Assembly: GCA_963848965.1 (NCBI GenBank)
Contig: CAWKFG010000004.1
Coordinates: 544,001-608,000, forward strand
Direction of reading: 5' to 3'
DNA: 64,000 nucleotides
Source: an uncultured bacterium
Lineage (GTDB): Bacteria; Babelota; Babeliae; Babelales; Babelaceae
Shown here: piece after piece, positions 1,725 to 61,873 of the stretch
Position numbering within the stretch: the stretch's first letter is position 1
Layout of the letters: the number at the start of each line of letters is the position of its first letter
Made by a program: the position numbers and the translations under genes
Notes under the pieces: model-generated
What the model was told of the DNA's origin: nothing
The model's input: only the letters and a program-made list of their open reading frames with translations
Databases searched by the model: none

Positions 1725-2634
1725 ATGAACAAAAAATTTCTCTTGCTGTACATACTCTTTTTCTCTTCTTGTAATGCAATGAACTATATAACTACTCCTA
1801 TTGACAAAGCATGTTCTCTTCTTAATCAGTTAGGCGGCCATATTGGGCATACTTTTTACTCAAAAGGAAAAAAGCTCCGCCCATTAAATCAACAAGAGAT
1901 ACAAGAAGTTAGTGAGGTTATGAGATTATTAGATATCAATCAACCTATTTACTGTTTTGCGGATCTAAAGCCGGACAAAAAAACTAAAGATGGCTTTGGT
2001 TTAGGTGTTTTCAACCACATATACTTTCCAATAACCACCCTTCAACTGCTCTCAAATCCCAAAAAAGCTACTATTGGTCATGAGCTTATACATGTAAAAA
2101 GATACCATTCTCTTAAACGCTTTGCCAGAGGGATAAGTATTCCTAGTTTAGCAAGTACGTGCTTTTTCTGGTTACTTCATAGAAATAATGTTCCTCTAAA
2201 GATAAATATTCCTTTAAGCGCATTTGTATTTTTGCTCACTTTCCCTATACCCTTTCCTTTTGACAAAAGAATTAGACAAGGCAGAGGAAAAACAAGCAGA
2301 TAGAGAAGCTTTAAAAGTACTAGGTGTAGAAGTTGCCCGAAGTCTTATTGATATTCTTAATACGTATGCTAAAGGAGATAACAAAGAAGAAGACAAAAAG
2401 CCGTTTTTAGAAAGAATAGCATACATTAATGAGCTTTTTCCAAAAACAGTAGAAGAGTCCCCTCAAGAAGTTCCACAAGCAGAGGAAGATCAACCTTACG
2501 AAGAGCCAGAAATGATAGCTCCTGCTCCAAATCCAACACAACCCTTACCCGCTCCTTCAGCTAAAAACTCTTCTAAACCAAAAAAACGTGGTGGAAAACA
2601 TAGAGGAAAAAACAAACAAGTAACTAACAAATAG
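1725..2634 (+). pseudogene. Secreted M48-like zinc metallopeptidase split by a 1-nt frameshift (pseudogene or assembly indel)
   Basis: HELIH is in ORF 1698..2303 and EEKQAD is in ORF 2224..2634. Removing one C from the C-run at 2250-2252 joins them into ~302 aa. Signal peptide MNKKFLLL...SCNA-M. Confidence 0.7.
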
Positions 2635-2688
2635 TATGCTCATTTGTGTGCAATTAGAACCTAAGAACACTTACGATAAGGACTAAAC

Positions 2689-3060
2689 ATGAGTACACGA
2701 GAAATTATCCTCGGCAAAAAAGGTGAAGAGCTTGTAGCTTCTTACCTACAAAAGCAAGGGTTTATTATACAAGCTATGAATTATCGAATAAAAGCAGGTG
2801 AGATTGATATTATTGCAGCTAAACATGAGGTCATGGCTTTTGTAGAGGTAAAACTTCGCCAAAATCCGCAATTTCCTCTCTCTGAACTTATAGTGCCTGC
2901 TAAGCAAAAAAAGATAATAAAAGCTGCACTCTGGTACATTGCAAGTAAGCGCTTACAAGATATGGTATTCCGATTCGACGTAGCACTTTTAGAACCACAA
3001 GGAAGTGAGTATACTATTACTTATATTGAAAACGCTTTTACTGCTTTTGAGTATTCATGA
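2689..3060 (+). CDS. yraN: YraN/UPF0102 family endonuclease
   Basis: Motifs GKKGEE, GEIDII, FVEVK, RFDV and IENAF. Confidence 0.92.
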   Translation: MSTREIILGKKGEELVASYLQKQGFIIQAMNYRIKAGEIDIIAAKHEVMAFVEVKLRQNPQFPLSELIVPAKQKKIIKAALWYIASKRLQDMVFRFDVALLEPQGSEYTITYIENAFTAFEYS

Positions 3061-3702
3061 ACGAACTCACAAAAAGAACGTTAACAGGTATAATTTTACT
3101 AGCTCTTCTTACGTATTCTATTCTCTATGCTCCTTCTTGGGTTTTTCCACTATTAGCAGCGCTTATTCTTGGCATTATACTTCTTACCGAGTGGCCACGC
3201 CTGTTTGATTATAAAAAGCCTCTCTTTTGGCTTATGCTACCTTATTTGCTCATTCCCTTTTCTCTTATGAGTATCCTACAATTAGAGGGTTATAGATTGC
3301 TCAACTTTCTTCTTATCTTAATGGTTGCAGCACATGATACTGGTTCTTATATTATAGGCAAGCGTTGGGGTAAGTATAAGATTGTTCCTACCATAAGCCC
3401 TGGTAAAACATGGGAAGGTTTTATTGGAGGGTGCGCAGTGACTTTTTTGGTAGCACTTCTCTTTTTTAGTTTTTATCAATTACCTTCTTTTACGTTTCTC
3501 TTTCTTTTTAGTTTAACAGTATCTACTCTTGCTTTTTTGGGAGATATTTTTGAATCCTATCTTAAAAGAAGAGCTCATCTTAAAGACTCTGGCACTATTT
3601 TGCCAGGACATGGAGGACTTTTAGATAGAGATAGATAGTATATTATTTGTTGCAGTCTTTATATATTTTATGCATAAAGTACTCTGGAGCTTATTATTAT
3701 AG
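3057..3702 (+). CDS. cdsA: Phosphatidate cytidylyltransferase with a 1-nt insertion near the C-terminus
   Basis: Motifs SPGKTWEG, GDIFESYLKR and KDSGTILPGHGGLLDR. The ORF stops at 3638, but deleting the G at ~3630 restores LDR-IDSILF... through to TAG at 3700-3702. Confidence 0.88.
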
Positions 3703-3712
3703 AAGGAGAAGT

Positions 3713-5652: not shown

Positions 5653-5747
5653 AGTTTTGCCATTTATAAAAATAGTTCGGTCTTTTTTCTTAATGTACCT
5701 ATTTTAGCAAGATAAGTCGAATTGCCAAAAGATAAAGGGGTGCTTAA

Positions 5748-5779: not shown

Positions 5780-6529
5780 TTAGTGTCCTGCCTTAGGGAT
5801 GTGTTTAATTTGAACTTCTGGGTTAAATTGGATGTGTTTACCTTTACCTTGATCTTCGGCTTCCGCTATAAAAATAGCGCCATCGGGATCAATAGTAATA
5901 ATAAGAGTTGGTGTTCGACCACTTGGTTTGTAGCTAGCAGTATGTTCTCTCTTTTGAGAGTCTATAGTAATAATCGTAAGAGGTACTGTTCTTATTACAT
6001 CTAGATTAAGCTTTTTATCTTCACTAGGTTTAACTTGAAAAGTCTCTTTACCTACATGTAGTCTAACGTTAAACGGAGAAAGATTATTAACGCGCTTTAT
6101 TACCACTGATTCTTCTGGTTTTGCAAGAGGAGGTTGTATTCGTATAGCAGTTGCTAATTGATCTGCTGGTTGTATAGGCTCTATGTTAGGCAAATCAGTT
6201 TGATAAGCGCCTGTCCCTCTTGGACCGTTGACTATATAATCTATTGCGCCTGTTCTTCCACTAGGGGTATAGGAAGCTATGTTTTTTCCTCCTTGAAACA
6301 CTTTAAGAGTATATGAAGGAGTTAAAGGTAAATTAACAATCTTTCCTTTTTTCTCATCTACATTAACTGTGTCTAGTACTGTCTTATCTTTCGTAATGAG
6401 TATGCGTACTACTTCATCAGAAAGATTAATAATTTTATGGAGCTGCGTTTTATTTGGTTCTCTTTCCATGGCACAGATTCCAAAAGTTGTAACATAAACA
6501 CTTATTATAATAAAATATTTAATAAACAT
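5780..6529 (-). CDS. Secreted hypothetical protein with two tandem homologous beta-rich domains
   Basis: Signal peptide ...ICA-MERE. Repeated unit NLS..VR...NL...ASY(T/K)PSGRT occurs twice. Confidence 0.65.
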   Translation of the reverse strand: MFIKYFIIISVYVTTFGICAMEREPNKTQLHKIINLSDEVVRILITKDKTVLDTVNVDEKKGKIVNLPLTPSYTLKVFQGGKNIASYTPSGRTGAIDYIVNGPRGTGAYQTDLPNIEPIQPADQLATAIRIQPPLAKPEESVVIKRVNNLSPFNVRLHVGKETFQVKPSEDKKLNLDVIRTVPLTIITIDSQKREHTASYKPSGRTPTLIITIDPDGAIFIAEAEDQGKGKHIQFNPEVQIKHIPKAGH

Positions 6530-6619: not shown

Positions 6620-7348
6620 TCATCTTTTTGTAAGAAGTTTGAGTATCTCTGGCTGTTCTGTAAGTCTTATGGTTCTATAGCCATAGTCGTCTTGAGTATT
6701 GGGATTGGCACCCTTGTTTAGAAGAAATTCTACTATATTTTTATGTCCGCCTAGGGTAGCACTCATTAAGGGTGTAAATCCTCTATTGTCAGGCTTGTTA
6801 ACGTCTGCTCCGCGTTCTACTAGGTATTGAACTATAGGTAAATGTCCTGTATATGCTGCTCGCCCAAGTAGAGTAGATTGTCCAAAATTACGATTAGGAT
6901 TCCATTTTTGTTTTTCTATAAAATCTTTTACTTGGTCTACATTGCCTTTATTAATAGTAGAAAGAAGTTGTTCTTCTTGGTTATAGTTATTTTCCCATTT
7001 CATATGGCTAATGGCTGGTAGAGCAAGTCTTTGAGCTATGTATGGTTGTTTATTAACATTACGGAATTTTCTATCTAAGTAGTTGATGAAGGCTCTTATA
7101 AATTCGTCGTTATTAAATAAGGATGTATGTTCTCCTTGTGCATTTAACTTCGTTACAATGTTCATAGCTTCAGTTAAATCTTTTGCTTTATCTATAGATT
7201 GTAGTACTGCTTGTAGATCTGGTCCTGTTTTTAGTTCTTCTGGTAGGTATTTAAATGCATCTTCTTGTATTTGTTTATGTTCTGTTTTCATAGCAAAAGT
7301 GGTGCTAAAGAAGCTTCCTACAATCGTAATAATTATGTATTTTTTCAT
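6620..7348 (-). CDS. Secreted ankyrin-repeat protein with a weak F-box-like N-terminal motif
   Basis: Signal peptide ...TFA-MKTE; FKYLPEELK; ankyrin repeats such as GFTPLMSATLGGHKNIVEFLLNKGANPN. Confidence 0.85.
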   Translation of the reverse strand: MKKYIIITIVGSFFSTTFAMKTEHKQIQEDAFKYLPEELKTGPDLQAVLQSIDKAKDLTEAMNIVTKLNAQGEHTSLFNNDEFIRAFINYLDRKFRNVNKQPYIAQRLALPAISHMKWENNYNQEEQLLSTINKGNVDQVKDFIEKQKWNPNRNFGQSTLLGRAAYTGHLPIVQYLVERGADVNKPDNRGFTPLMSATLGGHKNIVEFLLNKGANPNTQDDYGYRTIRLTEQPEILKLLTKR

Positions 7349-7828: not shown

Positions 7829-9382
7829 ATGTCAAAGCTGCTTAAGATTTTGGGAGTAACTCTAAGTGTTTGTTCGGCGATACATCCGCGTAGTGTTGTA
7901 TCGAGTCATACATTCTTTTCGATAAGGCCATTTTTTCAGTCGGGTACGCCTTTGCGAGTTTCATTTTTTAGAAATGATTTGTTGGATGAAACGCAGGGTA
8001 TTGGTGGTGCATTTGAAACGGTGGTGTATGGTGGTCAAATTGATAATGTGGGTGTCGGTAAGATTGCACGGTTCTTTTTGCCTGGCGGATGTACTGCTTG
8101 TTGTTTGAATGTAAGGGAATTTAATCCTACGGTAGAGGCTAATCCTGCAAATACGGAAGATGGTAGTCTTACAAAAGATTTGGAAGCACGCCATTTTAAT
8201 ATTCATACGGTGAATGAGAATTTTGCAAGTCGTGTTTGTTTTAGGCCTGAGCATAAAGTGTTTGGTATTGGCTTTGCTTATAAGCAGGTTCTTACACGTC
8301 GTTGTGATGGTGGTGCTCGTTTTTGGTTTGAGCTTGGTTTTCCTGTAGAGCGTGTAGAAAATAGAGTGCGAGTGCGCGAGAGGATAGAAAATAATGGTGG
8401 TGGTGCTCGTAATGAAATTGGTTTAGATAATAGTCTGCGAGTAGGAACAATGCGTGAAGCATTACGACAGAAGAACTGGCTTTTTGGCAAAATCGATTCA
8501 AAGTGCCATGTAGAATGGGGAGTTGCTGATGTTGAACTGAAGATAGGCTACAATAGCATTACTTGTGAAACATGTACGTTGAGTTCTTATCTTGGAGTCG
8601 TCATTCCAACAGGTACAAAAGTACGTAGCCATGTGCTTTTTGAGCCTATTGTCGGCAACAACCATCATTTTGCATTTCTGCTTGGCAATACAATTGGATT
8701 TGAATTATGGAAAAAAAGCTGTTATAATTTATCAATGTATGTTGATGGGGTTACAAGATATCTGTTTAGAAACCATCAAATACGTACATTTGATTTAATA
8801 GGTAGACCGTGGAGTCGTTATATGGAAGTTTATAGAACTTCAGAAGACGCAGCTACTGCTGCAGCAACTAACAATCCTAACAGTGGCACGTCAGGTATTA
8901 ATGTATTTACGCAGTGTGTAGAAGTAAGTGCACATCTGTCAGCTAATTTTAATACAGGATTTGTATTCTCATGGCAAAGGGATTGTGCAAGTTGGATAGC
9001 AGAATTTGGTTATAACTTTTTTGCACGTCAGGCAGAAGTAGTTGAACTTGAGGGAGATACCTCTATAAGTACAGTAGCGTTGAAGGGGGTGAACGGAAAC
9101 GGTACTACCACTGCAGCACGCACCATTAAAAACAATTTCCAACAATCAGTATTTACGTTTGCAGAACGCTATCAAGCACTGACAAATTGTGATATAGATT
9201 TAGAATCTGCAGCTCATCCTGCTACACTTTCGTATACGTTGTATGCTTCATTAGGATATAAGTGGGAACGTGAATGTCCGCTTTTTGTAGCATTTGGTGG
9301 TTCATATGAGTTTGCAGTAAATGAGATTAATACAACCCCAGATAGATGGCTTGTATGGGGTAAATTTGGATTTACTTTTTAA
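7829..9382 (+). CDS. Cys-rich outer-membrane beta-barrel protein (putative porin)
   Basis: Signal peptide, alternating aromatic beta-strand pattern, C-terminal beta-signal WGKFGFTF ending in Phe, many Cys. Confidence 0.7.
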   Translation: MSKLLKILGVTLSVCSAIHPRSVVSSHTFFSIRPFFQSGTPLRVSFFRNDLLDETQGIGGAFETVVYGGQIDNVGVGKIARFFLPGGCTACCLNVREFNPTVEANPANTEDGSLTKDLEARHFNIHTVNENFASRVCFRPEHKVFGIGFAYKQVLTRRCDGGARFWFELGFPVERVENRVRVRERIENNGGGARNEIGLDNSLRVGTMREALRQKNWLFGKIDSKCHVEWGVADVELKIGYNSITCETCTLSSYLGVVIPTGTKVRSHVLFEPIVGNNHHFAFLLGNTIGFELWKKSCYNLSMYVDGVTRYLFRNHQIRTFDLIGRPWSRYMEVYRTSEDAATAAATNNPNSGTSGINVFTQCVEVSAHLSANFNTGFVFSWQRDCASWIAEFGYNFFARQAEVVELEGDTSISTVALKGVNGNGTTTAARTIKNNFQQSVFTFAERYQALTNCDIDLESAAHPATLSYTLYASLGYKWERECPLFVAFGGSYEFAVNEINTTPDRWLVWGKFGFTF

Positions 9383-9400: not shown

Positions 9401-11692
9401 ATGCAAAATAAATTGTGGCTATTTTTAGGCTGTACAATACTCTCTACCAGCCTCTTTGGTGTGGTGGGTATTGACGACTTTAGAAAGTCGTATATCGCCC
9501 CCTCTGGTATGGTAAACAGAAGTGAGCTCATTGCTGAGTTTAATCGGCTTTCTCCGCTGAACCAGAGATTAGCAAATGCAATGCTTATAAACAGATTTAA
9601 GAAAAATATTACCCAATTACGGCAGGAAGAGCTTGCTGCAATAAGAGCTGGAAGAGCTCCTGTATTCTCAAGACGTGCTCCTCGAGTTGCACCTAAGCAG
9701 GTTTTACCTGTTCAACCTTCGGTAAAGGCTGAACGCCCAGATAAACAAGAGCGTAAGCAAAAACAAAAACATCATCAAGATAAGCATGACAAGCGTAAAG
9801 CGAGAATCGCTGCTTTACAAAAGGCTGCAGCACGCAAAGCAACACTTGCTAAAAAAAGAGCTGCTGCTCGAAAAAAAGCGCATGCTTATAAAGCAAAACA
9901 AAAAGCTCAATTAAGAAAAGCGAAAGCAACAGCTTGTAAAATAGCTCGTCAATTACGACAAGCACAAAAAGCACGTGAAGCTCAAGAAAAAGCAGCTAGA
10001 ATAAAAGCTGCTCAAGCACTTGCTGCTCAACAAGCTAAACAATTAGAAGCTGCACGTAAAGCACAAGAAGCACAGCAAGCACAATTACGTGCTGAACGAG
10101 AAGCTGCTAATCAAGCGGTAGTAATTAAATTACGTGAACAGGTAAAAGAAGCTTCTGTACACTTAGCTCAAGAAGTAAGCAAAAAAGATGCTATCAAAAA
10201 AGATCTTGAACAAAGTCTTCTTGACGTAAGAGCACGTCTTGCTGTTGGTCCTCAACCGGATGTTGTACATATTACTAACGACATTACTAATGCACAAGCT
10301 CGTTATGCTCAGTATCAACAAGCTGTTGCAGCGACTGAAAAAAGTGCTTCAGATTTTAACTTCTCAGCACAGCTTATAATTCAAAATCAGCATGTTCCTC
10401 GAAATGAAAAAGAACGTGCTGTTCAACAATCTGCACATGCTCTTAAGGGTGCTCAAGAATCGCGTCACGACAGAGATGCTAAAGCACAAGAACTTAAAAG
10501 AGTTCAAAAAGAGTTTGAGAAGGTAAAGACCCGTATAGGACAAGATGAAGCACTTCGTGCTGAAGTAGAAGGCCTTATGCATATGGCAGAAAATGTGCGT
10601 AAAGACGTGCAAACGGCTTTAGCTGGTATGAATGCTCTTTCTATTGCAGATTTAGACACTAGGCTCAAAAAACTTGATACAACGAAGAAGGAACTTGTAA
10701 GTGCTCTTGGCAAGGCTCTAGAAAACGTTGAAAAAGTAAAACCTGCTCAAGAAGTTAATCTAAGAAACGCTCTTGAAACTGCTCGCAAAGAGATTGCAGC
10801 TCTTGATCTTTCTCCTCTTGCTAAAAGAATTGACGTGCTTAAGGCTCAGCAAGCAGAGCTTGAGAAGAAAGCTGTAGAAGAAGCCAAGCAGGTTGTTGAA
10901 GCAGTAAGCAGAAAGGTAACTGATCTTGCTGAACGATATAACCAATTTAGAGAAGCAAAAGGTAAACTTATTGGCTTAATGAGCGGTGCTCATGTAACTC
11001 ATGATAAGCTAGAAGAAGCTATAACTGAATACAAGAAGCATGTAGGACCGATTACTGCTCGCCTTGAAGATCTCGATAAGGATAACGCTGTGATCAAGCT
11101 TCGTGCAATTGAACCACATAGCGAACTTTTAGATAAAATAGAACAAGTAAAACTTGCTATTCAACCTGGACAAACAGAGGCACTTATACATCGAGCAGAG
11201 CTACAAGCAAAGGCACAGTTATTGAAAGCTCAAGAAGTACCTCCTGTACCAAGTAGAAGTGCTGCACCTGCTGTTGCTCCTGCTTCTTCTCAGGGACCAG
11301 TACCACCTGCTCGAGTAACGCCCGTAACACAACCATCGCAGGTTGTTATTACACTCGATGCAGCAGCACAAAATACTCCTACTTTTAAAGCAGGTAACAT
11401 AACTCTAGATGCACATAAACCAGAAGAATTCATACAGCTTATAGAGAAACTTGATGAAGGTACTGTTGATGCTTTAGCTAAAGAGCTTATTACAGCTACT
11501 GATAAAGCAGACAAAGACGATACTCGCTTGAGCGCCCTTTATAAACTTATGGATATCTATGGTCTTGCCTTCCAAAACAAGCAAGAAAAGGTTAAGGAAA
11601 AAATGCGTCGTCTCATGACACCAGCGTTTAATGCTGTAACAAATACAGGAGATAGTCGTTATATTGGAATACAAGGTCAGATAATACTCTAG
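9401..11692 (+). CDS. Exported long coiled-coil protein with a highly basic Lys/Ala/Arg segment
   Basis: Signal peptide; segment KAAARKATLAKKRAAARKKAHAYKAKQK; extended heptad region; Pro-rich linker. Confidence 0.7.
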   Translation: MQNKLWLFLGCTILSTSLFGVVGIDDFRKSYIAPSGMVNRSELIAEFNRLSPLNQRLANAMLINRFKKNITQLRQEELAAIRAGRAPVFSRRAPRVAPKQVLPVQPSVKAERPDKQERKQKQKHHQDKHDKRKARIAALQKAAARKATLAKKRAAARKKAHAYKAKQKAQLRKAKATACKIARQLRQAQKAREAQEKAARIKAAQALAAQQAKQLEAARKAQEAQQAQLRAEREAANQAVVIKLREQVKEASVHLAQEVSKKDAIKKDLEQSLLDVRARLAVGPQPDVVHITNDITNAQARYAQYQQAVAATEKSASDFNFSAQLIIQNQHVPRNEKERAVQQSAHALKGAQESRHDRDAKAQELKRVQKEFEKVKTRIGQDEALRAEVEGLMHMAENVRKDVQTALAGMNALSIADLDTRLKKLDTTKKELVSALGKALENVEKVKPAQEVNLRNALETARKEIAALDLSPLAKRIDVLKAQQAELEKKAVEEAKQVVEAVSRKVTDLAERYNQFREAKGKLIGLMSGAHVTHDKLEEAITEYKKHVGPITARLEDLDKDNAVIKLRAIEPHSELLDKIEQVKLAIQPGQTEALIHRAELQAKAQLLKAQEVPPVPSRSAAPAVAPASSQGPVPPARVTPVTQPSQVVITLDAAAQNTPTFKAGNITLDAHKPEEFIQLIEKLDEGTVDALAKELITATDKADKDDTRLSALYKLMDIYGLAFQNKQEKVKEKMRRLMTPAFNAVTNTGDSRYIGIQGQIIL

Positions 11693-11700: not shown

Positions 11701-12117
11701 ATGATAGGAAAAGCACTTTTATACTCTCTTATTTTCAGTATATGCTCTTTGGCATATGCTCTTGATGATCAATATTGGAATAGCATCGTTTGTACAATTG
11801 TACAAAAAGGCGACGCCAAAGGAGAGAAATCAGAGGTTGATAAAGACTTTGCTCTCCAAGCTTATCGTAATATAAGCTCAAAGAGCATCGGTCTTGCAGC
11901 GCTAGCAGGCGAGTTGATTAAACGAACCTTTAACATTGCTGAGTTACCTAAACGGTTTGACGAGCTTTCTCAAGAAGAAGTTGCAAACGAAACGCAAAAT
12001 CTTCTTGTAAAGCCAAAAAGCCACGGTGGCTTTAGAGACTTTCTTGAAGGTCAAAAGGTAACTATTGTTGAAGAGCAAAAAAACTCTCAACGAGCAGTAT
12101 CTGTTAAAGTCAGTTAA
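11701..12117 (+). CDS. Exported hypothetical protein
   Basis: Signal peptide ...AYA-LDD; starts 8 nt after the previous stop. Confidence 0.65.
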   Translation: MIGKALLYSLIFSICSLAYALDDQYWNSIVCTIVQKGDAKGEKSEVDKDFALQAYRNISSKSIGLAALAGELIKRTFNIAELPKRFDELSQEEVANETQNLLVKPKSHGGFRDFLEGQKVTIVEEQKNSQRAVSVKVS

Positions 12118-12207: not shown

Positions 12208-13392
12208 ATGAAAATACTTTTTCTCTTCTCTCTATTTCTTTGTACTTCACTCTGTGCATTAGAAGAACCGCCAGTACTTAATGGTATTGATGTGCTTGTA
12301 AAAGATCAGTATACACAACTTAAAGGCCATACTATAGGGCTTATTACCAATCATACAGGTCATAATTATCAAAGAACAAGTACCATTGATTTACTGTATA
12401 AAGCGCCTGGAGTAACACTCAAGGCACTTTTTAGTCCAGAACATGGTATACGTGGCCTCGTAGATACACAGGTAGATGATAGCAAAGATGAAAAAACTGG
12501 ACTGCCTATTTATAGTTTATATGGAGCTACACGTATTCCACAACCAGAACAGCTTAAGAGGCTTACTGCTCTTGTATTTGATATACAGGATATTGGATGT
12601 AGATTCTATACGTATATCTCTACTTTAGGCCTTTGTATGGAAGCTGCAGCAAAAGCAGGATTAAAATTTTTTGTGCTTGATAGAGTAAATCCTATTAATG
12701 GTGTTACTGTCGATGGGCCTGTGCTTGTCGATAAGCCAAGCTTTACAGCATATCATCCAATTGCAGTACAGCATGGTATGACAGTAGGAGAATTAGCATG
12801 CATGTTTAATAAGGAAAAAGAACTGAATCTCGACTTAGTGGTAATTCCTGTACAGGGATGGAAAAGAGAGCAGTGGTTTAGTGAGACAGGACAGCCATGG
12901 ACAAACCCTTCACCAAACATGCGTAGCCTCACACAAGCTACGTTATATCCTGGTATAGGACTCCTTGAAAGAATGGCCCTCTCAGTAGGACGAGGAACCG
13001 ATACACCATTTGAGGTAGTAGGAGCGCCTTATATTAATGAGTTACAGTTATACGCTGAGTTGCATAAAGCAGATCTTAAGGGTGTTACTTTTGTACCTGT
13101 ACAGTTTACTCCTAGAGGAAACATATTTAAGGATGAGCTCTGTAAGGGCGTCAACATTATTGTTCTTGATAGAACGCTTTTTTCTGCCATAGACGTTGGT
13201 ATTACACTTGCACAAGCATTATACACGTTATATCCAAATCAGCTTAATTTTTCACAATTTAATACATTACTGTGCCAATCAAAGACCTTGAAAGCTATTG
13301 AGAATAAAGAATCATCTAAAGAGATTCGGGCATTATGGGCTCTTAGCTTAGAAGAGTTTAAAAGAAGAAGAAGATGCTATTTACTCTACTAA
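12208..13392 (+). CDS. namZ: Exo-beta-N-acetylmuramidase NamZ (DUF1343) family
   Basis: Motifs GLITNHTG, LFSPEHG, FDIQDIGCRFYTY, HGMTVGELA, PSPNM and SVGRGT; signal peptide. Confidence 0.9.
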   Translation: MKILFLFSLFLCTSLCALEEPPVLNGIDVLVKDQYTQLKGHTIGLITNHTGHNYQRTSTIDLLYKAPGVTLKALFSPEHGIRGLVDTQVDDSKDEKTGLPIYSLYGATRIPQPEQLKRLTALVFDIQDIGCRFYTYISTLGLCMEAAAKAGLKFFVLDRVNPINGVTVDGPVLVDKPSFTAYHPIAVQHGMTVGELACMFNKEKELNLDLVVIPVQGWKREQWFSETGQPWTNPSPNMRSLTQATLYPGIGLLERMALSVGRGTDTPFEVVGAPYINELQLYAELHKADLKGVTFVPVQFTPRGNIFKDELCKGVNIIVLDRTLFSAIDVGITLAQALYTLYPNQLNFSQFNTLLCQSKTLKAIENKESSKEIRALWALSLEEFKRRRRCYLLY

Positions 13393-43717: not shown

Positions 43718-44908
43718 GTGACCATGAAAGCACAATTAAGCACCCTCGGATTCATAGTCTGTAGTGCACTAGCTTTTATACAAGCAATGGAGAGCATGCC
43801 TCGTATAAACCCATGTTATCCAGCAAATGAGTATAGATATACTATTAGCATTGCCGGTATTTCTTGCAAAGATTTCAAGGATAAGGTACGAGGCTGTGTC
43901 TTAGGGGCAGCTTTAGGTGATATGCTGGGAGCGCCAACAGAATTTATCTCTTCACGTGAAGCTATTAATAAAGTATATCCACCCTCTGGCATTACAGGTA
44001 TTGAGAGCTTTAAGGAAAAAGACTTTACAAAGGATGCTTCTGGCAAAAAAGTAGCTCCCTATACTGACGATACTGCCATGAGTATTCTTGTTTTAGAAAC
44101 TATTACATGTTTTAGCAGATCGCAGTTTAACCCTCCATCACAATGGAACATAAATGATGCTATGCATGATCTTGCATTGAGCTTTGTAAAAGATATGAAT
44201 AACCCTGCCGGTTGGGCACAACAAAGGCGAGCTCCTGGGCTTACCTGTTTACGTAATGTACAAGAGCTTGCCACACGGTTTGAAGCAATGGCCAGGAAGC
44301 ACAATAAAGATCCTCGTTTTTGGGCAGTTGGCAAACCAACAGAAGGTGGTTGCGGATCTGTTATGCGAGCACATCCCTTTGGCCTTATTTTTGCAGGAAA
44401 TATAGAAAAAGCAATAGAATGGGCAGTAGAACACTCCAAAATTACTCATGGAGCTCCTATGGCTTTAGCCGCCTGTGCCGCAATGGCATGCGGTGTCGCT
44501 CATGCTCTAAGAAACGAAAAGCCAGAAGCAGTTGCTCAAAGAATGTATGAAGTTGCAAAAAAATATGATAGTTATACAGCACAGCTTATAGAACGAGCAA
44601 TAGAATATGCCTATGATGCTCGCAAGCCAAGTGATGAAGTATTTAAAGAGTTTCAAGGATGGGCAGCTCATGAAGCTATTGCAGCTGCTACTTATGCATT
44701 TTTAAAGCATCCAGATGATCTGAAAAAAGCTATTCTCTTAGGAGTTAATACCCCTGGTGATAGCGATAGTATTGCTTCAATGGCAGGAGCTCTTGTAGGC
44801 GCTCGCATTGGCGCACAACAGATACCACAGGAATGGCTTGAAGTACTTGAAGGGAGTCAAAGACTTATACAGCTTGCTGATAATGTTGCAAATTTATATA
44901 AGAAATAG
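43718..44908 (+). CDS. Secreted ADP-ribosylglycohydrolase (ARH/DraG family)
   Basis: Motifs GAALGDMLGAPTEF, YTDDT, GCGSVMR and GDSDSIASMAG; signal peptide ...IQA-MES. Confidence 0.9.
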   Translation: MTMKAQLSTLGFIVCSALAFIQAMESMPRINPCYPANEYRYTISIAGISCKDFKDKVRGCVLGAALGDMLGAPTEFISSREAINKVYPPSGITGIESFKEKDFTKDASGKKVAPYTDDTAMSILVLETITCFSRSQFNPPSQWNINDAMHDLALSFVKDMNNPAGWAQQRRAPGLTCLRNVQELATRFEAMARKHNKDPRFWAVGKPTEGGCGSVMRAHPFGLIFAGNIEKAIEWAVEHSKITHGAPMALAACAAMACGVAHALRNEKPEAVAQRMYEVAKKYDSYTAQLIERAIEYAYDARKPSDEVFKEFQGWAAHEAIAAATYAFLKHPDDLKKAILLGVNTPGDSDSIASMAGALVGARIGAQQIPQEWLEVLEGSQRLIQLADNVANLYKK

Positions 44909-44911: not shown

Positions 44912-45793
44912 CTAGCGCTTTTTTGCAATAAGTACATCAATAAAATCGAGCGTCGCCTTTAACGATGTACATTGATTCTGTAAAAGTTGAATAAGTGCTG
45001 GATAACTTGTAGGAATTTGTACGTTAAGACGTGCATCGTCTTCTTTGATGAAAATAACATAAACCATATCACCAAATACCAGCATAAATTGTAAAAGAAG
45101 AAGCCATCGTGAGAATGAAGCATATGGTTCTTCTAAGGAACCACACGCTATCGATGTAGCGCCTACAAAAAGCCATAGAGGCATTTTTAGAGTAAGCGGA
45201 GCACCATTTCTAAGACGGTGTGTTCTTTCAAGAGCCTGCTTTCTAGAGATAACAATAGAAAGAAAGTTTTGCATTTCAGTATAAAAAGCTTGCATAGTAT
45301 GACGCATCTCATGCAATCCTTCAAGTGTGAATTCACGTAACTTCTCATGCTTAAAGATCTCTGCTCGTCCGGAAGAAGAGAGTTCAATGAGTCTTCTAAA
45401 ATCGGTTAAATCTGTCTTATAAAGCGCAGTTTTCAGTGGAGAAAATAGACGATATGCATTAAGTGCAGCTTTAATCTTTGCTGATACATCAGCGTGAGGT
45501 TTAGCTTTTTGAAAGCTTTTTAATATGATTTCATCTGCTTTTGCGGTTGTTGGATAAGCCTTCGTTTTCTTAATAAAGCTTTCTACAACTTTTTTAGCAG
45601 TAGTTGGAGTAAGTCCATAAATTCTCATAAGATAATTAAGCGCTCGATCATCACCCTCAAGGCACTCAAGAATAAGCAAAATAGCATCCTTAGGTAAATC
45701 TTCAAATGAAAGCTTTGGCTTTTCCATAGAGAATATAGAAAAAGTAGCACATGTTAAAAAAGAGAACAACCCTAATCTTTTAAAAATAGTCAT
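44912..45793 (-). CDS. Secreted F-box-like protein with two C-terminal TM segments (paralog B)
   Basis: ...IFS-MEKP; EDLPKDAILLILECLEGDDRALNYLMRIYGLTP is closely similar to paralog A. Confidence 0.7.
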   Translation of the reverse strand: MTIFKRLGLFSFLTCATFSIFSMEKPKLSFEDLPKDAILLILECLEGDDRALNYLMRIYGLTPTTAKKVVESFIKKTKAYPTTAKADEIILKSFQKAKPHADVSAKIKAALNAYRLFSPLKTALYKTDLTDFRRLIELSSSGRAEIFKHEKLREFTLEGLHEMRHTMQAFYTEMQNFLSIVISRKQALERTHRLRNGAPLTLKMPLWLFVGATSIACGSLEEPYASFSRWLLLLQFMLVFGDMVYVIFIKEDDARLNVQIPTSYPALIQLLQNQCTSLKATLDFIDVLIAKKR

Positions 45794-53646: not shown

Positions 53647-53811
53647 TGTTAAGAAATTTTATAGCAAGTTCCTCTTTATTATAGCATAATGCATTATTTT
53701 TGCCAACTACACTCAGCTTATTATCTCATAGATACGCTCATATATTGACAATGCGTATTCCTTCTTAGCATGCTAAAATTACTTTCATTTCATAACAAAA
53801 AAGGAGTGTAT

Positions 53812-54786
53812 ATGATTCACTTTTTTCTCAGCATACTTGCTTTATGTGCATTTTCTTGTCTGAGCGCAGAGCAGAGTAACGAGCAGCAAGGCATACCTTT
53901 AGAACAAGAAGTATCTACACGAAGCTGCAAAAAACACTGCTCTTGTAAAAGAAAGAGAAAGTGTACACAGTTTCAGGGCTTTGTTCCATGCAATGGACTT
54001 CAGCTTTTTACAACGCTCCAGGGGTGCGGTAAACAAACAATTGTATTTTTACATGGCTTTCCTGCAGATTCACAAGTGTGGAATCAACAAAGACAAGCAT
54101 TTAATAACTGCTATAGAACATTAGCATATGACCAAAGAGGATTTGGTAAATCAAGTCAACCTGCTGGACCCTATGACATTGCTGCATACGTACAAGATCT
54201 CCGTTGCGTTTTAGACCACTTTGGGATACAAAAACCGATTCTAGTTGGTCATTCGTTTTCAGGAGAAGTTGCTATTCAATTTGCTTCTCTCTTTCCAGAT
54301 AGAGTATGTAAGCTTGTACTTGTGAGCACCAGCGCTAAACTTGTTGCGAGCCCTGATTTTCCATTTGGCGCATCTCCTGAAGCCATAGGACAAATTGTAG
54401 CACTTATTCAAAAAAATCTACGTGCAGGGCTCACTGCATTTGTTAGTGCCGGCTTTCCAGAACCTAATACCGAAGCTCTACAACAACAAGTGATAGAACA
54501 AGGCTTACAATCAACTCAGGCAACTGTTCTAAGTTTCTTCCGTGATACAAGTCCTACTGATGTACGTCCTCTGCTTCCTTCAATTACTGTTCCAACACTT
54601 ATTGTTCATGGAACAAGTGATAACATAATTCCCTTCCCAGCAGGACTATTTTTACGAGACAACATTAGAAACTCTCAATTTGTTGCCTTTGAAGGTAAAG
54701 GTCATTTTCTTTTCTTGACCGATCCTACAAAGTTTACACAGGTAATGACAAATTTTTTACGTACAACCCCTGCTTGTTGCAGATAA
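53812..54786 (+). CDS. Exported alpha/beta hydrolase, copy 1
   Basis: AAGGAG then ATG 53812; motifs HGFP, DQRGFGKS, GHSFSG, HGTSD and GH; signal peptide and a Cys/Lys-rich linker. Confidence 0.88.
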   Translation: MIHFFLSILALCAFSCLSAEQSNEQQGIPLEQEVSTRSCKKHCSCKRKRKCTQFQGFVPCNGLQLFTTLQGCGKQTIVFLHGFPADSQVWNQQRQAFNNCYRTLAYDQRGFGKSSQPAGPYDIAAYVQDLRCVLDHFGIQKPILVGHSFSGEVAIQFASLFPDRVCKLVLVSTSAKLVASPDFPFGASPEAIGQIVALIQKNLRAGLTAFVSAGFPEPNTEALQQQVIEQGLQSTQATVLSFFRDTSPTDVRPLLPSITVPTLIVHGTSDNIIPFPAGLFLRDNIRNSQFVAFEGKGHFLFLTDPTKFTQVMTNFLRTTPACCR

Positions 54787-55017: not shown

Positions 55018-55992
55018 ATGATTCATTTTCTTTTCAGCATACTTGCTTTATGTGCATTTTCTTGTCTGAGCGCAGAGCAGAGTAACGAGCAACAAGGCAT
55101 ACCTTTAGAACAAGAAGTATCTACACGAAGCTGCAAAAAACACTGCTCTTGTAAAAGAAAGAGAAAGTGCACACAGTTTCAAGGTTTTGTTCCATGCAAT
55201 GGACTTCAACTCTTTACAACAGTACAAGGATGCGGTAAGCAAACAATTGTATTCTTACATGGCTTTCCTGCAGACTCACAAGTGTGGAATCAACAAAGAC
55301 AAGTGTTTAATAAGTGTTATAGAACGTTAGCATATGATCAAAGAGGATTTGGAAAATCAAGTCAACCTACAGGACCTTATGACGTTACTGCATATGCACA
55401 AGATCTTCGCTGTATCCTAGATCACTTTAGCATACAAAAACCGATTATAGTTGCCCACTCATTTGCAACAGAAGTTGTACTGAAATTTATTTCACTTTTT
55501 CCTGATAGAGTCTGTAAACTTGTGCTTGTCAGCGGAAATGCAAAATTCCTTGCAAGCCCAGACTATCCTTTTGGTGTACAGCCTGAATTTTTACAACAGT
55601 TAGTAACACTTGTACAAAGAAGCTTACTTGAAGGACTCACTGCATTTGTAAATCTTTCTTTTCCTGAACCTAATACTGAAGCTTTAAAAAAGCAAGTTCT
55701 TGAACAAGGTCTTCAGTCAAGCCAAGCCACTGTTTTAAGCTTTGGCCAAGGAATAGCTCCTACAGATGTACGTTCTGTTCTTCCGTCAATCACTATTCCA
55801 ACGCTCATTGTTCATGGGACAAACGATAACATATTCCCTTTCCAAGCAGGGCTATTTTTACGCGATAACATCAGAAACTCTCAATTTGTTGCCTTTGAAG
55901 GTAAAGGCCACTTTCCTTTCTTAACTGATCCTACAAGGTTTACACAAGTAGTAGAAAATTTCTTACGCTCAACTCCTGCTTGCTGCAGATAA
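55018..55992 (+). CDS. Exported alpha/beta hydrolase, copy 2 (tandem duplicate)
   Basis: N-terminus almost identical to copy 1; nucleophile elbow AHSFAT. Confidence 0.88.
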   Translation: MIHFLFSILALCAFSCLSAEQSNEQQGIPLEQEVSTRSCKKHCSCKRKRKCTQFQGFVPCNGLQLFTTVQGCGKQTIVFLHGFPADSQVWNQQRQVFNKCYRTLAYDQRGFGKSSQPTGPYDVTAYAQDLRCILDHFSIQKPIIVAHSFATEVVLKFISLFPDRVCKLVLVSGNAKFLASPDYPFGVQPEFLQQLVTLVQRSLLEGLTAFVNLSFPEPNTEALKKQVLEQGLQSSQATVLSFGQGIAPTDVRSVLPSITIPTLIVHGTNDNIFPFQAGLFLRDNIRNSQFVAFEGKGHFPFLTDPTRFTQVVENFLRSTPACCR

Positions 55993-56064: not shown

Positions 56065-56799
56065 TTAATCTAGAGCATTAGTGCTTGAAAGAGCCTTTTC
56101 TGGTTGATTAAGGAGTGATGCAATTGACATACGTAAAGCCTGGCTTGGTGCAACAGATCGCTCTGTTCGCGTAGGTAAAGTAGGTATATCACGACTTGCT
56201 TCTTCTAGAGCCTGAAAAAATCTTGGCTCAGTTCCACGCGCTTGCTCACTTTGAGCTACACTTGCTAAAAAAGATAACGCAGGTACTTGCTCTATTACAC
56301 CTGATTCAATAATTTCGTCTTTTTCTAGCATCTGTGCTTTTTCATGCCGCTCTTTATGCTCATTTAATCGGCCCAAGCTATTAAAAGCACCATTACAATA
56401 ATCACACTTATAAGATTTTTCTTCTTGTCCTTGATGTACTAATACAACGTGTGTTTTAAGATCATTTGTTGCAAAAAAAGTATGTCCACAGTCATCACAT
56501 GTATAACGACGTTTCTTTTCATGTACCCGTTTCATATGTGTTCTTACGTTTCCTTGCTGGGTAAATTCTTTTCCGCATATAGTACAAGGATATTTTTTGC
56601 CTGTATGCGCGTTCATATGAATTTTTAAAATACCTTTGGTTCCAAAAGTTTTACTACATACTTCGCATGGATAGGTTTTTTTACTCCCATTTTCTTGTAT
56701 AGTTTGTTTGCGCTCAGCAATAGAAGGACTTATCTCCATCCCATATGTTTTTGCAAAAATGCACATCAGCATTATAATACCATAAAGTACTTTCATCAT
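56065..56799 (-). CDS. Secreted eukaryote-like protein with four C2H2 zinc fingers
   Basis: Four Y-x-C-x2-C-x3-F-x8-H-x3/4-H fingers; TGKKYP linker; signal peptide ...TYG-MEIS. Confidence 0.88.
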   Translation of the reverse strand: MMKVLYGIIMLMCIFAKTYGMEISPSIAERKQTIQENGSKKTYPCEVCSKTFGTKGILKIHMNAHTGKKYPCTICGKEFTQQGNVRTHMKRVHEKKRRYTCDDCGHTFFATNDLKTHVVLVHQGQEEKSYKCDYCNGAFNSLGRLNEHKERHEKAQMLEKDEIIESGVIEQVPALSFLASVAQSEQARGTEPRFFQALEEASRDIPTLPTRTERSVAPSQALRMSIASLLNQPEKALSSTNALD

Positions 56800-59477: not shown

Positions 59478-59920
59478 TCACTATTAAAAACACACAAAAA
59501 AAAGTAGAGCTTGATAAAAAGAAAGTACAAGCAGATGTACAAAAGATTTTAGACATTCTTAAGTACTCTGATTTCGATATTGGTATTTGGTTTACTGGTA
59601 ATAAAACTATACAAAAGTATAATCAAACATATCGCTCTAAGAATGTACCTACTGATATTCTTTCATTTCCCAATTACCCCTCGCTTAAACCAGGAGAGCG
59701 CATAAAAGCTCAAACAGAAGATGATCGCAATTTAGGAGATCTTATACTTTCACTAGAGTATGTTCAAAAAGATGCTCAACGGTTAAACATCTCCTTTGAA
59801 GATCGGCTCAAAGAACTTTTAGTGCATGGCATGTGCCATCTTCTTGGCTATGATCATATCGAAGATAAAGACTATAAACGTATGCGAGCAAAAGAGGTAT
59901 ATCTTCTTAAACATCTTTAG
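59474..59920 (+). CDS. ybeY: rRNA maturation endoribonuclease YbeY
   Basis: Motifs PTDILSF, LGD and HGMCHLLGYDH; ATGA overlap with the valS stop. Confidence 0.95.
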   Translation: MITIKNTQKKVELDKKKVQADVQKILDILKYSDFDIGIWFTGNKTIQKYNQTYRSKNVPTDILSFPNYPSLKPGERIKAQTEDDRNLGDLILSLEYVQKDAQRLNISFEDRLKELLVHGMCHLLGYDHIEDKDYKRMRAKEVYLLKHL

Positions 59921-60029
59921 TATGACTTGATGAGTAGCTGATAGCAGAAGAATAAGATATCTTTCTCAAAGCACTTACAAGTGTAAATACTATCATCACG
60001 ATAAGTAATAATACAACTGAAAAACGCAT
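59907..60029 (-). CDS. Possible 40-aa hydrophobic small protein or gene stub
   Basis: G-rich SD-like run before ATG 60029; MRFSVVLLLIVMIVFTLVSALRK... resembles a signal peptide. Confidence 0.3.
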   Translation of the reverse strand: MRFSVVLLLIVMIVFTLVSALRKISYSSAISYSSSHTKDV

Positions 60030-60184
60030 ATCTAGCCCCCCTATCTGATAGAACAAACACCATTTCTAGTGTAGTCACTATCCTTTTTTTGTCAATTTAA
60101 TTTAGCAACTTGCAAGCTTTTAATATAAGCATTATAATTACATTAATTACAAATAATCTATCTAATAAGCTCGGGGGGGCCACT

Positions 60185-61873
60185 ATGAAATTTATATATA
60201 GATATATTTTTATACTACTTTGTACTTCTTATGCGTATGCAATGGAACAGGATAAAGAACAGAAGTCGCGAGTACCATCTTTGTTTACTCTATGCCAAAG
60301 ACAAGCAATTACTGTTCTTTCTCAAGGACGGCTCAGCTTACGACAATTAAGAGAGCTTTTAGTTCTTTATAAAGATCTGCCTGCTAATATACTGACCCCT
60401 ATTATTTCATCGCTTGCTAATAATAACATCCTTCAACAAAACCATGGAGAAATTCCGCTGCTACTTGCTTTAGCAGAGTATTGTGCTTATCAAAGTAACA
60501 ATACCTGTTTGGAAAAAAACGCTCAAGAGATAAAAGAAGAAAGAAAAAAAGGTGAAGTACATAAAGGGGTAAGCAGAGATCACCTTCTTAGACGTCTTAA
60601 TCAAGCAATGGAACTGCCAGATACGTGTCCTTATGCAGCCCTTTTTATTACTCTTATCTCTAAAGCTCTTTACGCTGTCCAAGTACAAGATAGAGCATTT
60701 GAACAACCTTTGGTTACCGCCTGCCTTTATGATTATAAAACAGTTGTTGATTACCTTATTGCTCACCACACACGATTTCTCGACTTTACACATGCTGTAA
60801 TACAGCTTATGGAAAGAAACGAAGAAAAAGCTTGTATACTTATCAATCTTTTGAAAGATCGTAAAAAAAAGTTACAGACTCAAAGTCCCTTCTGCTTTGA
60901 TAGTAATAGTCTCTTTATACACGCCTTTACACACCGCTATACAAAGGTTCTACATTTGTTAGAAGCAGACATAGATTTTAAGGAGCTCCCTCTTGGATTC
61001 GTTCAGACTAATTATCTTTTTCTTAATAGATGGGCAGAAGATTGTATTTTAAGAGGAGATATATCACTATGCTCTCAGCTTATTGAGCGCATTAAAGCAA
61101 AGTGTGATATTAATCGTGTGTTGCTTCAAGTACCGGAATCTGGTTTTGCACATTCAACTCTCTTGTCAGCTGCTTTGACAAAAGAGTATGTAAAACTCGC
61201 TGCTTTATTACTTTCTCAAGGCGCAAATCCTAATAATGCATTACATGGAATACCTCTGTTGTATCAGACATGTCTACAAAATAATATTCTCCTTACTCAG
61301 CTGTTACTTGAATATGGTGCTAATGTTAACGCACGTTACCAACCAGAACAAGAAAATGAAGATACAGGTAATACAGCATTGCATATAGCAGCTCAACAGG
61401 GAAATGTAGATTGCGTTCGACTGCTTATAGAACATGGAGCACATATTACTATCAAAAACGAAGCAGATGTTACACCTTTACATAAAGCATGCTTCTATGG
61501 ACACAGTGAAATTGTGCAAGAACTTTTACAAAGAGGAGCAGAAGTAAATGCTCAAGATATAGAAGAAAGCACACCATTACATACCGCTTGCAAGCGAGCA
61601 GACCTTGAGCTTGTTAAGCTCTTACTTAAGCATAAGGCAGAAGTAAATAGTAAAACCGCTCTCGGACATACACCTCTTCATTCAGTGCTTTATGAACTTT
61701 TAGCAGATGATAGCAAAAAAGATCTACAAAAGCAGGTTATAGAGCTCCTTTTAGCTCATGGCGCTCAAATAGATGTAATGAACAATGATGATGATACTCC
61801 TTTAGATCTTGCTCAAGACTATGAAGATCCTGAAATCTTAGCTCTTTTTAAGGACAAAGGAAAAAAAGAGTAA
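60185..61873 (+). CDS. Secreted ankyrin-repeat protein with an N-terminal BC-box (SOCS-box-like)
   Basis: Start ATG 60185; ...AYA-MEQD; VPSLFTLCQRQAI; C-terminal ankyrin repeats. Confidence 0.85.
   Translation: MKFIYRYIFILLCTSYAYAMEQDKEQKSRVPSLFTLCQRQAITVLSQGRLSLRQLRELLVLYKDLPANILTPIISSLANNNILQQNHGEIPLLLALAEYCAYQSNNTCLEKNAQEIKEERKKGEVHKGVSRDHLLRRLNQAMELPDTCPYAALFITLISKALYAVQVQDRAFEQPLVTACLYDYKTVVDYLIAHHTRFLDFTHAVIQLMERNEEKACILINLLKDRKKKLQTQSPFCFDSNSLFIHAFTHRYTKVLHLLEADIDFKELPLGFVQTNYLFLNRWAEDCILRGDISLCSQLIERIKAKCDINRVLLQVPESGFAHSTLLSAALTKEYVKLAALLLSQGANPNNALHGIPLLYQTCLQNNILLTQLLLEYGANVNARYQPEQENEDTGNTALHIAAQQGNVDCVRLLIEHGAHITIKNEADVTPLHKACFYGHSEIVQELLQRGAEVNAQDIEESTPLHTACKRADLELVKLLLKHKAEVNSKTALGHTPLHSVLYELLADDSKKDLQKQVIELLLAHGAQIDVMNNDDDTPLDLAQDYEDPEILALFKDKGKKE

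Follow-up and report, generated by a model that had tools for sequence, protein, structure and literature searches.

A methionine-glutamate junction directly after predicted signal peptides marks a class of eukaryote-like proteins in a member of the Babeliales

The Babeliales (Dependentiae) are obligate parasites of protists, and in the genome of an uncultured member of the order (G000 hereafter) many of the proteins expected to act on the host cell share a particular junction, in which a short predicted signal peptide is directly followed by methionine and, in most cases, by glutamate. The stretch analyzed here, 64,000 nucleotides of this genome (C4:544001-608000, the window in what follows), carries 14 junctions of signal peptide and Met, and the pattern recurs throughout the genome. 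The Met-Glu junction is real and class-specific, being neither an artefact nor a second start led by a Shine-Dalgarno site, and it is held at the amino acid level across at least 65 unrelated families. As an explanation, to which we tentatively give somewhat less than an even chance, the junction would be a selected tag of the mature N-terminus, read by bacterial machinery and separating cargo for onward transport from residents of the periplasm and outer membrane.

The genome comprises 1.73 Mb in five contigs with 37% G+C and is 88.7% complete. Among named relatives, its SecA protein is closest to those of 'Candidatus Babeliales bacterium' (70% and 69% identity), followed by 'candidate division TM6 bacterium' (66%) and 'Candidatus Dependentiae bacterium' (62%). 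Genes were called, crudely, as longest open reading frames (ORFs), which gave 1591 non-overlapping ORFs of at least 60 aa, and 797 of these begin with a hydrophobic stretch resembling a signal peptide or membrane anchor. Cleavage sites were placed by our own -3/-1 and hydrophobicity rules instead of a SignalP-type predictor, and all of them are predictions. Under a strict rule the N-terminus had to contain 10 or more consecutive uncharged residues, ending by residue 35 and including an 8-residue window of strong hydrophobicity; 746 ORFs were retained. In 173 of them (23%) Met directly precedes the first charged residue downstream of the hydrophobic core, against 13.2 expected (P = 3e-134); the other commonest residues there are A (70), Q (62), I (61) and L (60). 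The excess is confined to this single position, Met making up 1-5% of residues at offsets from -8 to +8. A blind site picker, which applies the -3/-1 rule and downstream polarity and ignores +1, found Met at +1 in 188 of 667 ORFs and in 87 of the 179 best-scoring sites. Looser rules yielded Met junctions in 257 and 325 of the 1591 ORFs, the loosest set (325) taking in membrane-protein false positives. Given that strict, blind and looser rules return 173 to 325 of 1591 ORFs, the Met class represents somewhere between 11% and 20% of all ORFs.

The overall build appears to be that of a Sec-type signal peptide with a predicted signal peptidase I site directly before the Met. Lys or Arg precedes the hydrophobic stretch in 155 of 173 cases, residue 2 is Lys in 32%, and the n-regions listed are mostly short and Lys-rich; the hydrophobic h-region is imposed by the selection rule, positions -10 to -5 being L, I, F, S and V, and the Met mostly falls at residue 19-23. 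Before the predicted cut the commonest residues are L 64, S 23, I 20, T 19, V 15 and A 14 at -3, Y 48, F 28, Q 26 and L 25 at -2, and A 59, G 49, S 37, C 13 and T 9 at -1, so that A, G or S accounts for 145 of the 173. Leu at -3 is commoner here than in Escherichia coli. After the Met, +2 is E in 135, K in 28, D in 8 and R in 2, with a charge at this position imposed by the rule, followed by K 48, P 27, Q 22 and R 20 at +3 and E 43, A 21, D 19 and P 16 at +4; from +5 to +13 the information content is only about 0.3-0.4 bits. In 133 junctions of ankyrin and zinc-finger proteins, in which +2 was left unconstrained, it is E in 65, K in 27, Q in 24, D in 3, N in 2 and R in none; small residues occur in 7 (5% versus a background of 37%) and L, I, F, Y or W in 3 (2% versus 28%). 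The motif reads [A/G/S]↓M-[E/K/Q]-[K/P/Q/R]-[E/A/D/P] (the arrow marks the predicted cut), selected at the amino acid level. The charged n-region, the h-region and the small residues at -3 and -1 agree with export by Sec and signal peptidase I, for which G000 has one PF10502 gene. There is no lipobox, +1 being Met by definition of the class and Cys standing at -1 in 13 of 173. Nor is there a type IV pilin leader, as the hydrophobic stretch precedes the predicted cut and hydrophilic residues follow it, although one true pilin (PF07963) entered a 97-protein sample described below as a false positive. A motif of the PEXEL or RxLR type was likewise not found, in keeping with the 0.3-0.4 bits beyond +4.

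The initial annotation of the window had proposed that Met at +1 would be enriched in proteins with eukaryote-like domains over envelope proteins and could serve genome-wide as an effector predictor. By our own rules the enrichment is strongly class-specific, and a predictor of this kind would follow from it. In an 800-kb sample of G000, 97 Met-class proteins (first 600 aa, E ≤ 1e-5) were compared with Pfam, and so were 120 of 239 signal-peptide-like proteins without Met, taken as every second one by length rank (E ≤ 1e-8). The Met class contains ankyrin (42), C2H2 zinc-finger (10), WD40 (4), LRR (2), RING (1), AAA (2), FGase (1), DUF6829 (1) and weak DnaJ (1) matches, 31 proteins without a family and two false signal peptides, namely those of an Rce1-like membrane protease and of the type IV pilin; Pfam recognized no classical envelope family among the 97. 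In the set without Met there are five ankyrin and two WD40 proteins, two of these seven having A↓MQ or A↓MK junctions missed by the classifier, and 64 of 120 have no family. The remainder belong mostly to membrane, periplasmic or outer-membrane families, with a few cytoplasmic false positives, and include SecY, SecDF, YidC, FtsH, FtsW, MreC, TolC-like OEP, M50, prepilin peptidase and ExbB, as well as a solute-binding protein, amidase_3, GH3, S9, C11, a trypsin-like protease and a multicopper oxidase. Ankyrin, C2H2, WD40, LRR or RING domains thus occur in 59 of 97 against 7 of 120 proteins (Fisher P = 2e-19), the cut-offs of the two sets being different and the Met-class count at 1e-8 being about 54 of 97 instead of 59. 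When ankyrin and zinc-finger ORFs were collected from the whole genome by phmmer with seeds from the window, 119 of 148 ankyrin ORFs showed the Met junction, 13 another junction and 16 none, and for the 17 C2H2 zinc-finger ORFs the corresponding numbers were 14, 1 and 2. Among the 920 ORFs with any candidate junction, Met is present in 133 of 147 ankyrin or zinc-finger ORFs versus 192 of 773 others, an odds ratio of 29. Seven or more C2H2 zinc-finger genes stand in tandem at C1:232000-242000 (L055), each with a signal peptide and a Met-Glu or Met-Gln junction; their products would be exported DNA-binding proteins of eukaryotic type.

Shared descent does not account for the pattern. The mature parts of the 173 strict-rule proteins fall into 65 blastp clusters, the largest with 90 members (ankyrin) and 53 being singletons. 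The residue after the Met is Glu in 64 of the 90 ankyrin members and at least equally often elsewhere, namely in 44 of the 53 singletons and in 27 of 30 proteins from small clusters. For comparison, Glu is the first charged residue in 175 of 573 signal peptides without Met and occupies position 2 in 6.8% of non-exported proteins. Among the ankyrin paralogues the flanking residues have been randomized and the Met is nevertheless kept in 119 of 132 junctions. An RNA-level motif was rejected, as synonymous codon use at -1, +2, +3 and +4 matches that of the genome (GAA 68% versus 67%), the sole deviation being some excess of codons ending in T at -1 (AGT 51% of Ser codons versus 22%).

The habit is widespread but patchy in the order, and G000 is an extreme. 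We applied the same rules, within the phylum only, to 100-200 kb of each of twelve other Babeliales genomes from seven families; the 40 genomes sampled from the phylum all belong to this one order and measure 0.8-1.9 Mb. Under the strict rule Met occurs in 15/46 signal peptides in G008, 8/38 in G002, 7/44 in G021, 14/89 in G025, 6/50 in G004, 10/87 in G003, 2/32 in G013, 3/60 in G010, 1/36 in G055, 2/99 in G056, 0/31 in G005 and 0/33 in G014, compared with 70/335 in the 800-kb sample of G000. Ankyrin ORFs with the junction number 5 of 6 in G002, 5 of 5 in G025, 16 of 24 in G003, 5 of 9 in G008, 3 of 10 in G010, 2 of 8 in G005 and none of 12 in G056. The residue after the Met also varies by lineage, being E in G008 and G021, D, E or K in G025, often V in G010 and H in G056. 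At the DNA level, G000 has 17 copies of a pattern encoding [A/G]-M-E-K-E and none of the reversed control; elsewhere the pattern occurs at most six times (G026), and 112 of 201 Babeliales genomes have it at least once. The MEKE flavour is therefore extreme in G000 and serves poorly as a proxy for the wider Met habit. Homologues of non-repeat Met-class proteins, taken from the loose 325-ORF set with its membrane-protein false positives and found in the partial samples of the twelve relatives, show Met in 21 cases, a signal peptide without Met in 45 and no signal peptide in 3. In G056 (L035-L036) a family of ankyrin ORFs has signal peptides ending in …ITVSC↓SQQ, which is lipobox-like and suggests that its ankyrin proteins are lipoproteins in place of carrying a Met junction.

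Under the tag reading, which we regard as plausible though not yet probable, the proteins concerned (ankyrin, C2H2 zinc-finger, WD40, LRR, RING, AAA and PP2C proteins and many orphans) would act in the host cell. Their short Sec-type signal peptide would be cut after A, G or S at -1, with L, S, I, T, V or A at -3, and export and cleavage would expose Met followed mostly by Glu, Lys or Gln, a mature end that something would then read, envelope-resident proteins having ordinary +1 residues. The onward route could be a type II system, loading into vesicles or a later step across a host membrane, and with such a linear tag hundreds of structurally unrelated effectors, all evolving fast, could leave by one and the same exit. 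The Met of some families may go back to the original start codon, onto which a minimal signal peptide was grafted, and selection now keeps it. We favour a bacterial reader because the choice of residues is narrow (Met and not Ala, Ser or Thr; Glu, Lys or Gln and not Asp, Asn or Arg), because the preferred variant of the motif shifts from lineage to lineage, as expected of a co-evolving pair, because bacterial lipoproteins encode their destination right after the cut, and because one linear mark is the simplest shared exit for at least 65 unrelated folds.

A more specific version, in which the Met-Glu/Lys/Gln end is a linear signal for export or host translocation, a bacterial counterpart of PEXEL that routes some 170-320 unrelated effectors via type II secretion, seems to us possible but rather doubtful. 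Type II is reported as the only or the common secretion system of the phylum in the genome papers as far as they deal with secretion (PMC4378268, PMC4776705), one of which gives two copies of gspD (PMC4776705). In G000 three tandem secretin genes with open frames of 1153, 818 and 796 aa lie at C4:767163-774663 and two ATPases of the type II secretion kind (T2SSE) are encoded; no match to VirB4, FHIPEP or VipB was found in this 88.7% complete genome, in which the type II-like system is the only outer-membrane system found. Type II genes and Sec-type signals, the prerequisites of type II cargo, are both present, the role as cargo being itself predicted.

Several observations weigh against a bacterial reader. 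No candidate reader protein was found, and an additional secretin does not fit the part, as ten relatives have two or three secretin copies and the numbers do not follow the habit (3, 2, 3, 2, 2 and 2 copies in genomes with it; 2, 2, 3, 3 and 3 in those without). A single signal peptidase I gene means that no dedicated processing enzyme is seen, and the position of cleavage is one predicted by our own sequence rules. Some junctions read MKR..., with Lys-Arg directly after the predicted cut, and work on E. coli shows this to be unusual for Sec substrates. In G000 itself, exported effector-like proteins without Met include a Macro protein (NSSA↓D), a DnaJ protein (ITA↓D) and a clostripain-like protein (THTA↓A). 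Thirteen relatives of the ADP-ribosylglycohydrolase encoded in the window are likewise predicted to be exported without Met in other genomes, and G056 (0/12 ankyrin ORFs, 2/99 signal peptides), G014 (0/33) and G005 (0/31) possess a type II system and signal-peptide ankyrin proteins yet lack the habit. Lineages and individual exported proteins without Met in fact count against every functional reading of the junction, the tag included.

The junction would work like known sorting signals but appears to be a member of none of them. As in the lipoprotein sorting rules, that is the Lol-avoidance '+2 rule' and the lipoprotein export signal of Bacteroidota, a destination would be written in the first mature residues; in those systems, however, the mark follows a lipidated Cys at +1 and cleavage by signal peptidase II, whereas here Met follows a type I site without a lipobox. 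The PEXEL of Plasmodium and the RxLR of oomycetes are similar in that a short motif behind a signal peptide marks a host-bound subset, and processed PEXEL proteins start with x-E/Q/D, much like M-E/Q here. In contrast to these, the present motif is bacterial, has no RxL and abuts the predicted signal peptidase site instead of lying 15-30 residues downstream; nothing is conserved beyond +4 and no second protease is implied, so that the resemblance would be functional only.

A near rival, which we hold to be somewhat unlikely, is host mimicry, according to which the N-terminus of the effector would resemble an unprocessed eukaryotic one in the host cytosol or nucleus, retaining its Met, possibly becoming acetylated and escaping the N-degron pathways. 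The class is made up of proteins expected in the host cytosol or nucleus, and exported hydrolases and envelope proteins are without Met. A small residue after Met permits its removal and a large one retains it, and the depletion of small and of hydrophobic residues at +2 described above is what this idea would call for; with Glu or Gln the end would be retained, of NatB type and not a degron under the Arg/N-degron, Met-hydrophobic degron and NatB rules. There is also a precedent, as far as the part of the source consulted goes, for an effect of the N-terminal residue of a secreted bacterial protein on its fate in the host cytosol (PMC2518864). Nevertheless, mimicry does not explain the narrowness of the choice. 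Ala, Ser, Thr, Gly and Val at +1 are equally stabilizing, yet 119 of 132 ankyrin junctions have Met. After the Met, these rules would equally admit Asp, Asn, Arg and His, which the genome avoids (D 3, N 2, R 0 of 133), and measured against the NatB definition (Met followed by Asp, Glu, Asn or Gln) the genome uses E (65) and Q (24), avoids the equally good D and N and adds K (27, or 20%), which lies outside it. These rules are universal in eukaryotes, yet the relatives vary at +2 or have no Met, and in the ADP-ribosylglycohydrolase relatives the predicted +1 residue is Q, D, N or Y. N-terminal acetylation, moreover, is mostly co-translational, and a delivered protein may never meet it.

It is improbable that the Met is a neutral fossil, the old start of a once cytoplasmic or horizontally acquired gene to which a minimal signal peptide was grafted by 5' extension, with no function at present. 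The signal peptides are indeed minimal, as the position of the Met indicates, and one family lends the idea weak support. The DUF6829 protein of G000 (C4:442017-443438; L080:9481-10899) was found in G000 only among the 201 Babeliales genomes searched, and among the seven database sequences most closely related to it [A/S]↓M occurs in four (P0001, P0002, P0005 and P0006), A↓IM in P0004 and A↓S in P0007, while P0003 lacks a signal peptide and starts at a Met aligned with the +1 Met. P0003, however, lies on a 3-kb contig and may be a decayed or miscalled gene. Relatives of this protein also occur in black-yeast fungi (Exophiala, Cladophialophora and others) and, in other bacteria, as forms fused to dual-specificity phosphatase domains; the gene is likely a horizontal acquisition. 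When homologues without a signal peptide were aligned, their first Met coincided with the +1 Met in a peak at offset 0 (8 of 67), but six of these eight cases come from a single 77-aa fragment of the zinc-finger family (C1:123842-124075), the sole example within the genome, which has a decayed signal peptide directly upstream.

The ADP-ribosylglycohydrolase family points the other way. It is matched at E ≤ 1e-20 in 16 of 201 Babeliales genomes including G000, and a signal peptide is present in all 13 homologues whose conserved GDAxG motif is close to the N-terminus; read by eye, not one of them shows a small residue followed by Met, the +1 residues being Q, T, Q, D, S, S, A, Q, Q, Y, N and similar. 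Since the signal peptide is common to these 13 relatives without Met, the Met is younger than the signal peptide in this family and is therefore not simply a fossil start codon. Persistence of the Met in the ankyrin junctions while its neighbours were randomized also argues against a fossil, as does Glu after Met in 52-78% compared with 6.8% at position 2 of non-exported proteins. With one family fitting weakly and one against, the fossil start codon was rejected as a general explanation; grafting may be one origin, with Met also gained on existing signal peptides and maintained by selection.

Dual initiation, with the internal ATG as a second start that yields a cytoplasmic isoform beside the exported one, is very unlikely. 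The Met is necessarily encoded by ATG, and the A-rich codons after it (GAA AAA GAA) and U-rich ones before it could allow initiation without a Shine-Dalgarno site. However, a Shine-Dalgarno-like match of at least 4 nucleotides precedes 46% of first starts, 1.1% of the internal Met codons and 8.8% of random internal Met codons, so that the check for an alternative start codon suggested in the initial annotation came out negative for one led by a Shine-Dalgarno site, and a second start of that kind was rejected. Cytoplasmic copies of some 200 host-directed proteins have no apparent use, and the relatives do without the Met.

The notion that the Met is the true start and the "signal peptide" a chance in-frame extension into AT-rich upstream DNA can be set aside with near certainty, although longest-frame calls do stretch genes upstream wherever a start codon permits: in virtual upstream in-frame peptides of 793 non-exported ORFs a hydrophobic core near the start occurs in 38 and its combination with 18 open codons and A, G or S at -1 in 0, whereas the extensions at issue vary little in length, mostly contain K or R in the n-region (155 of 173), show small residues at -1 and -3, start with ATG in 157 of 188 and carry Shine-Dalgarno-like sites, and published annotations of Dependentiae relatives, in their passages on ankyrin proteins, likewise place signal peptides on most of them (79 of 126, PMC4378268; 78%, PMC6561590). 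The rules themselves do not create the Met, given that the same scripts find it in 0/33, 0/31 and 2/99 signal peptides of three in-phylum relatives (0-2%), which served as negative controls. Two enzymatic explanations were also dropped. A signal peptidase of this lineage that prefers a hydrophobic +1 residue was suggested by four of the six contrast proteins of the window (I, V, L and L), but ten exported enzymes elsewhere in G000 show, by eye, ordinary residues at +1 (E, G, A, Q, D, D, H, E and similar), and a dedicated second signal peptidase I was rejected, as G000 has a single gene.

Within the window, the 14 junctions listed in the initial annotation can all be read in the ORF translations, with ATG as the +1 codon after a small -1 residue, and its six contrast sites are as it described them. 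Its statement that every intact protein with a eukaryote-like domain has the Met also holds in the window by Pfam, which finds ankyrin repeats in seven of the 14 (ORFs 6620, 16925, 26033, 27004, 37219, 42139 and 60110), a C2H2 zinc finger in ORF 56065 and an ADP-ribosylglycohydrolase in ORF 43718; the other five (ORFs 1698, 5780, 31962, 42650 and 44912) match no Pfam family at E ≤ 1e-3. Met makes up 1.77% of residues, and the binomial probability of at least 14 Met among the 20 sites is P = 1e-20. Two further signal-peptide-like ORFs that had not been listed, 335-853 (SHG↓EM) and 46954-47607 (SQA↓RM), are both without Met at +1.

The coordinates below give the signal peptide together with the Met codon. 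Seven junctions belong to ankyrin proteins identified by Pfam. On the minus strand these are a 242-aa protein (TFA↓MK, 7289..7348, Met codon 7289-7291), a 1658-aa protein (LFA↓ME, 21851..21901, Met codon 21851-21853), the N-terminal piece of a broken gene (LWA↓ME, 26876..26929, Met codon 26876-26878), a 1596-aa protein (VSA↓ME, 31732..31794, Met codon 31732-31734), a 1408-aa protein with ankyrin and RING domains (ING↓MF, 41386..41445, Met codon 41386-41388) and a 145-aa protein (SYG↓MD, 42511..42576, Met codon 42511-42513). The seventh, on the plus strand, is a 587-aa ORF with the signal peptide MKFIYRYIFILLCTSYAYA (AYA↓ME, 60185..60244, Met codon 60242-60244). The broken gene is a 1671-codon ankyrin frame (21914-26929, minus strand) interrupted by a single in-frame TGA at 26033-26035; the only ankyrin ORF of the window without a signal peptide (21914-26011) is its downstream part, the upstream part having LWA↓ME. 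The paralogue at 27004-31794 has Cys (…ASKTAC…) at the matching place; the TGA either arose very recently by nonsense mutation or is read through.

Pfam also supports the C2H2 zinc-finger protein (TYG↓ME, minus strand, 56737..56799, Met codon 56737-56739) and the ADP-ribosylglycohydrolase (IQA↓ME, plus strand, 43718..43789, Met codon 43787-43789). The latter gene is flanked by two paralogues on the minus strand without a Pfam family, 42650-43561 (303 aa, LLA↓ME, 43502..43561, Met codon 43502-43504) and 44912-45793 (293 aa, IFS↓ME, 45725..45793, Met codon 45725-45727). Both read MEK after the signal peptide, have hydrophobic C-terminal segments and share an N-terminal LPKD…I.EYLEG.D.ALNYL that is F-box-like by eye, with no Pfam match; it is puzzling how a protein exported through Sec could get out of the inner membrane if its C-terminal part holds a membrane segment. 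Three more junctions fall in proteins without a Pfam family. Two are on the minus strand, in a 249-aa protein (ICA↓ME, 6467..6529, Met codon 6467-6469) and a 272-aa protein (LFG↓MR, 32718..32780, Met codon 32718-32720). The third, CNA↓MN on the plus strand (1725..1781, Met codon 1779-1781), follows the signal peptide MNKKFLLLYILFFSSCNA. Position 1725 is the second in-frame ATG of ORF 1698-2303 and the likely true start (MNKKF...); ORFs 1698-2303 and 2224-2634, both on the plus strand, overlap in frames one base apart and together resemble a frameshifted HExxH (metalloprotease-like) gene with this junction.

The six contrast sites all lie on the plus strand and have no Met at +1. They belong to a 517-aa porin-like protein without a Pfam family (CSA↓IH, signal peptide 7829..7882), to two proteins described from their translations, namely a 763-aa coiled protein rich in Lys, Ala and Gln (LFG↓VV, 9401..9463) and a 138-aa protein (AYA↓LD, 11701..11763), and to three identified by Pfam, the exo-beta-N-acetylmuramidase NamZ (LCA↓LE, 12208..12261) and two tandem alpha/beta hydrolases (both LSA↓EQ, 53812..53871, with the start taken at MIHFF, and 55018..55077). 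The two hydrolase genes (53770-54786 and 55018-55992) encode an identical signal peptide and identical first ~50 mature residues; this shared stretch is rich in Cys and Lys (…CKKHCSCKRKRKC…), and both proteins end in PACCR.

In several respects G000 resembles the secretome published for Babela massiliensis and Chromulinavorax destructans. Nearly half of the proteins have export signals (797 of 1591 here, 44% of genes in one relative, PMC6561590), most ankyrin proteins have a signal peptide, and type II is the only outer-membrane route both in the reported passages and here. Those passages of the Dependentiae genome papers that treat signal peptides and secretion (PMC6561590, PMC4378268, PMC4776705) are silent on the residue after the cut, and relative to them the Met-Glu mark at +1 is new. 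In the full-text literature we found no published account of a +1 Met habit, though a cleavage-site table in a supplement could show the pattern uncommented.

To our knowledge, how type II systems choose their cargo is a long-standing open question, a conformational signal being the accepted view. In the Dependentiae, a very large number of rapidly evolving eukaryote-like proteins pass through Sec and, so far as is known, a single type II system, and a two-residue mark after the predicted cut tells this set apart from envelope proteins, the odds ratio being about 25-29. This mark offers a mutable handle on cargo choice or, alternatively, on how delivered bacterial proteins with a cleaved signal peptide cope with eukaryotic N-terminal quality control. 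For uncultured Babeliales it also provides an inexpensive means of predicting effectors, many of which lack a recognizable domain (31 of the 97 Met-class proteins sampled). If the more specific version holds, in which the junction is a linear signal for type II-dependent export or host translocation, no simple sequence tag for type II cargo would have preceded it, and it would give a one-line effector predictor across part of the phylum.

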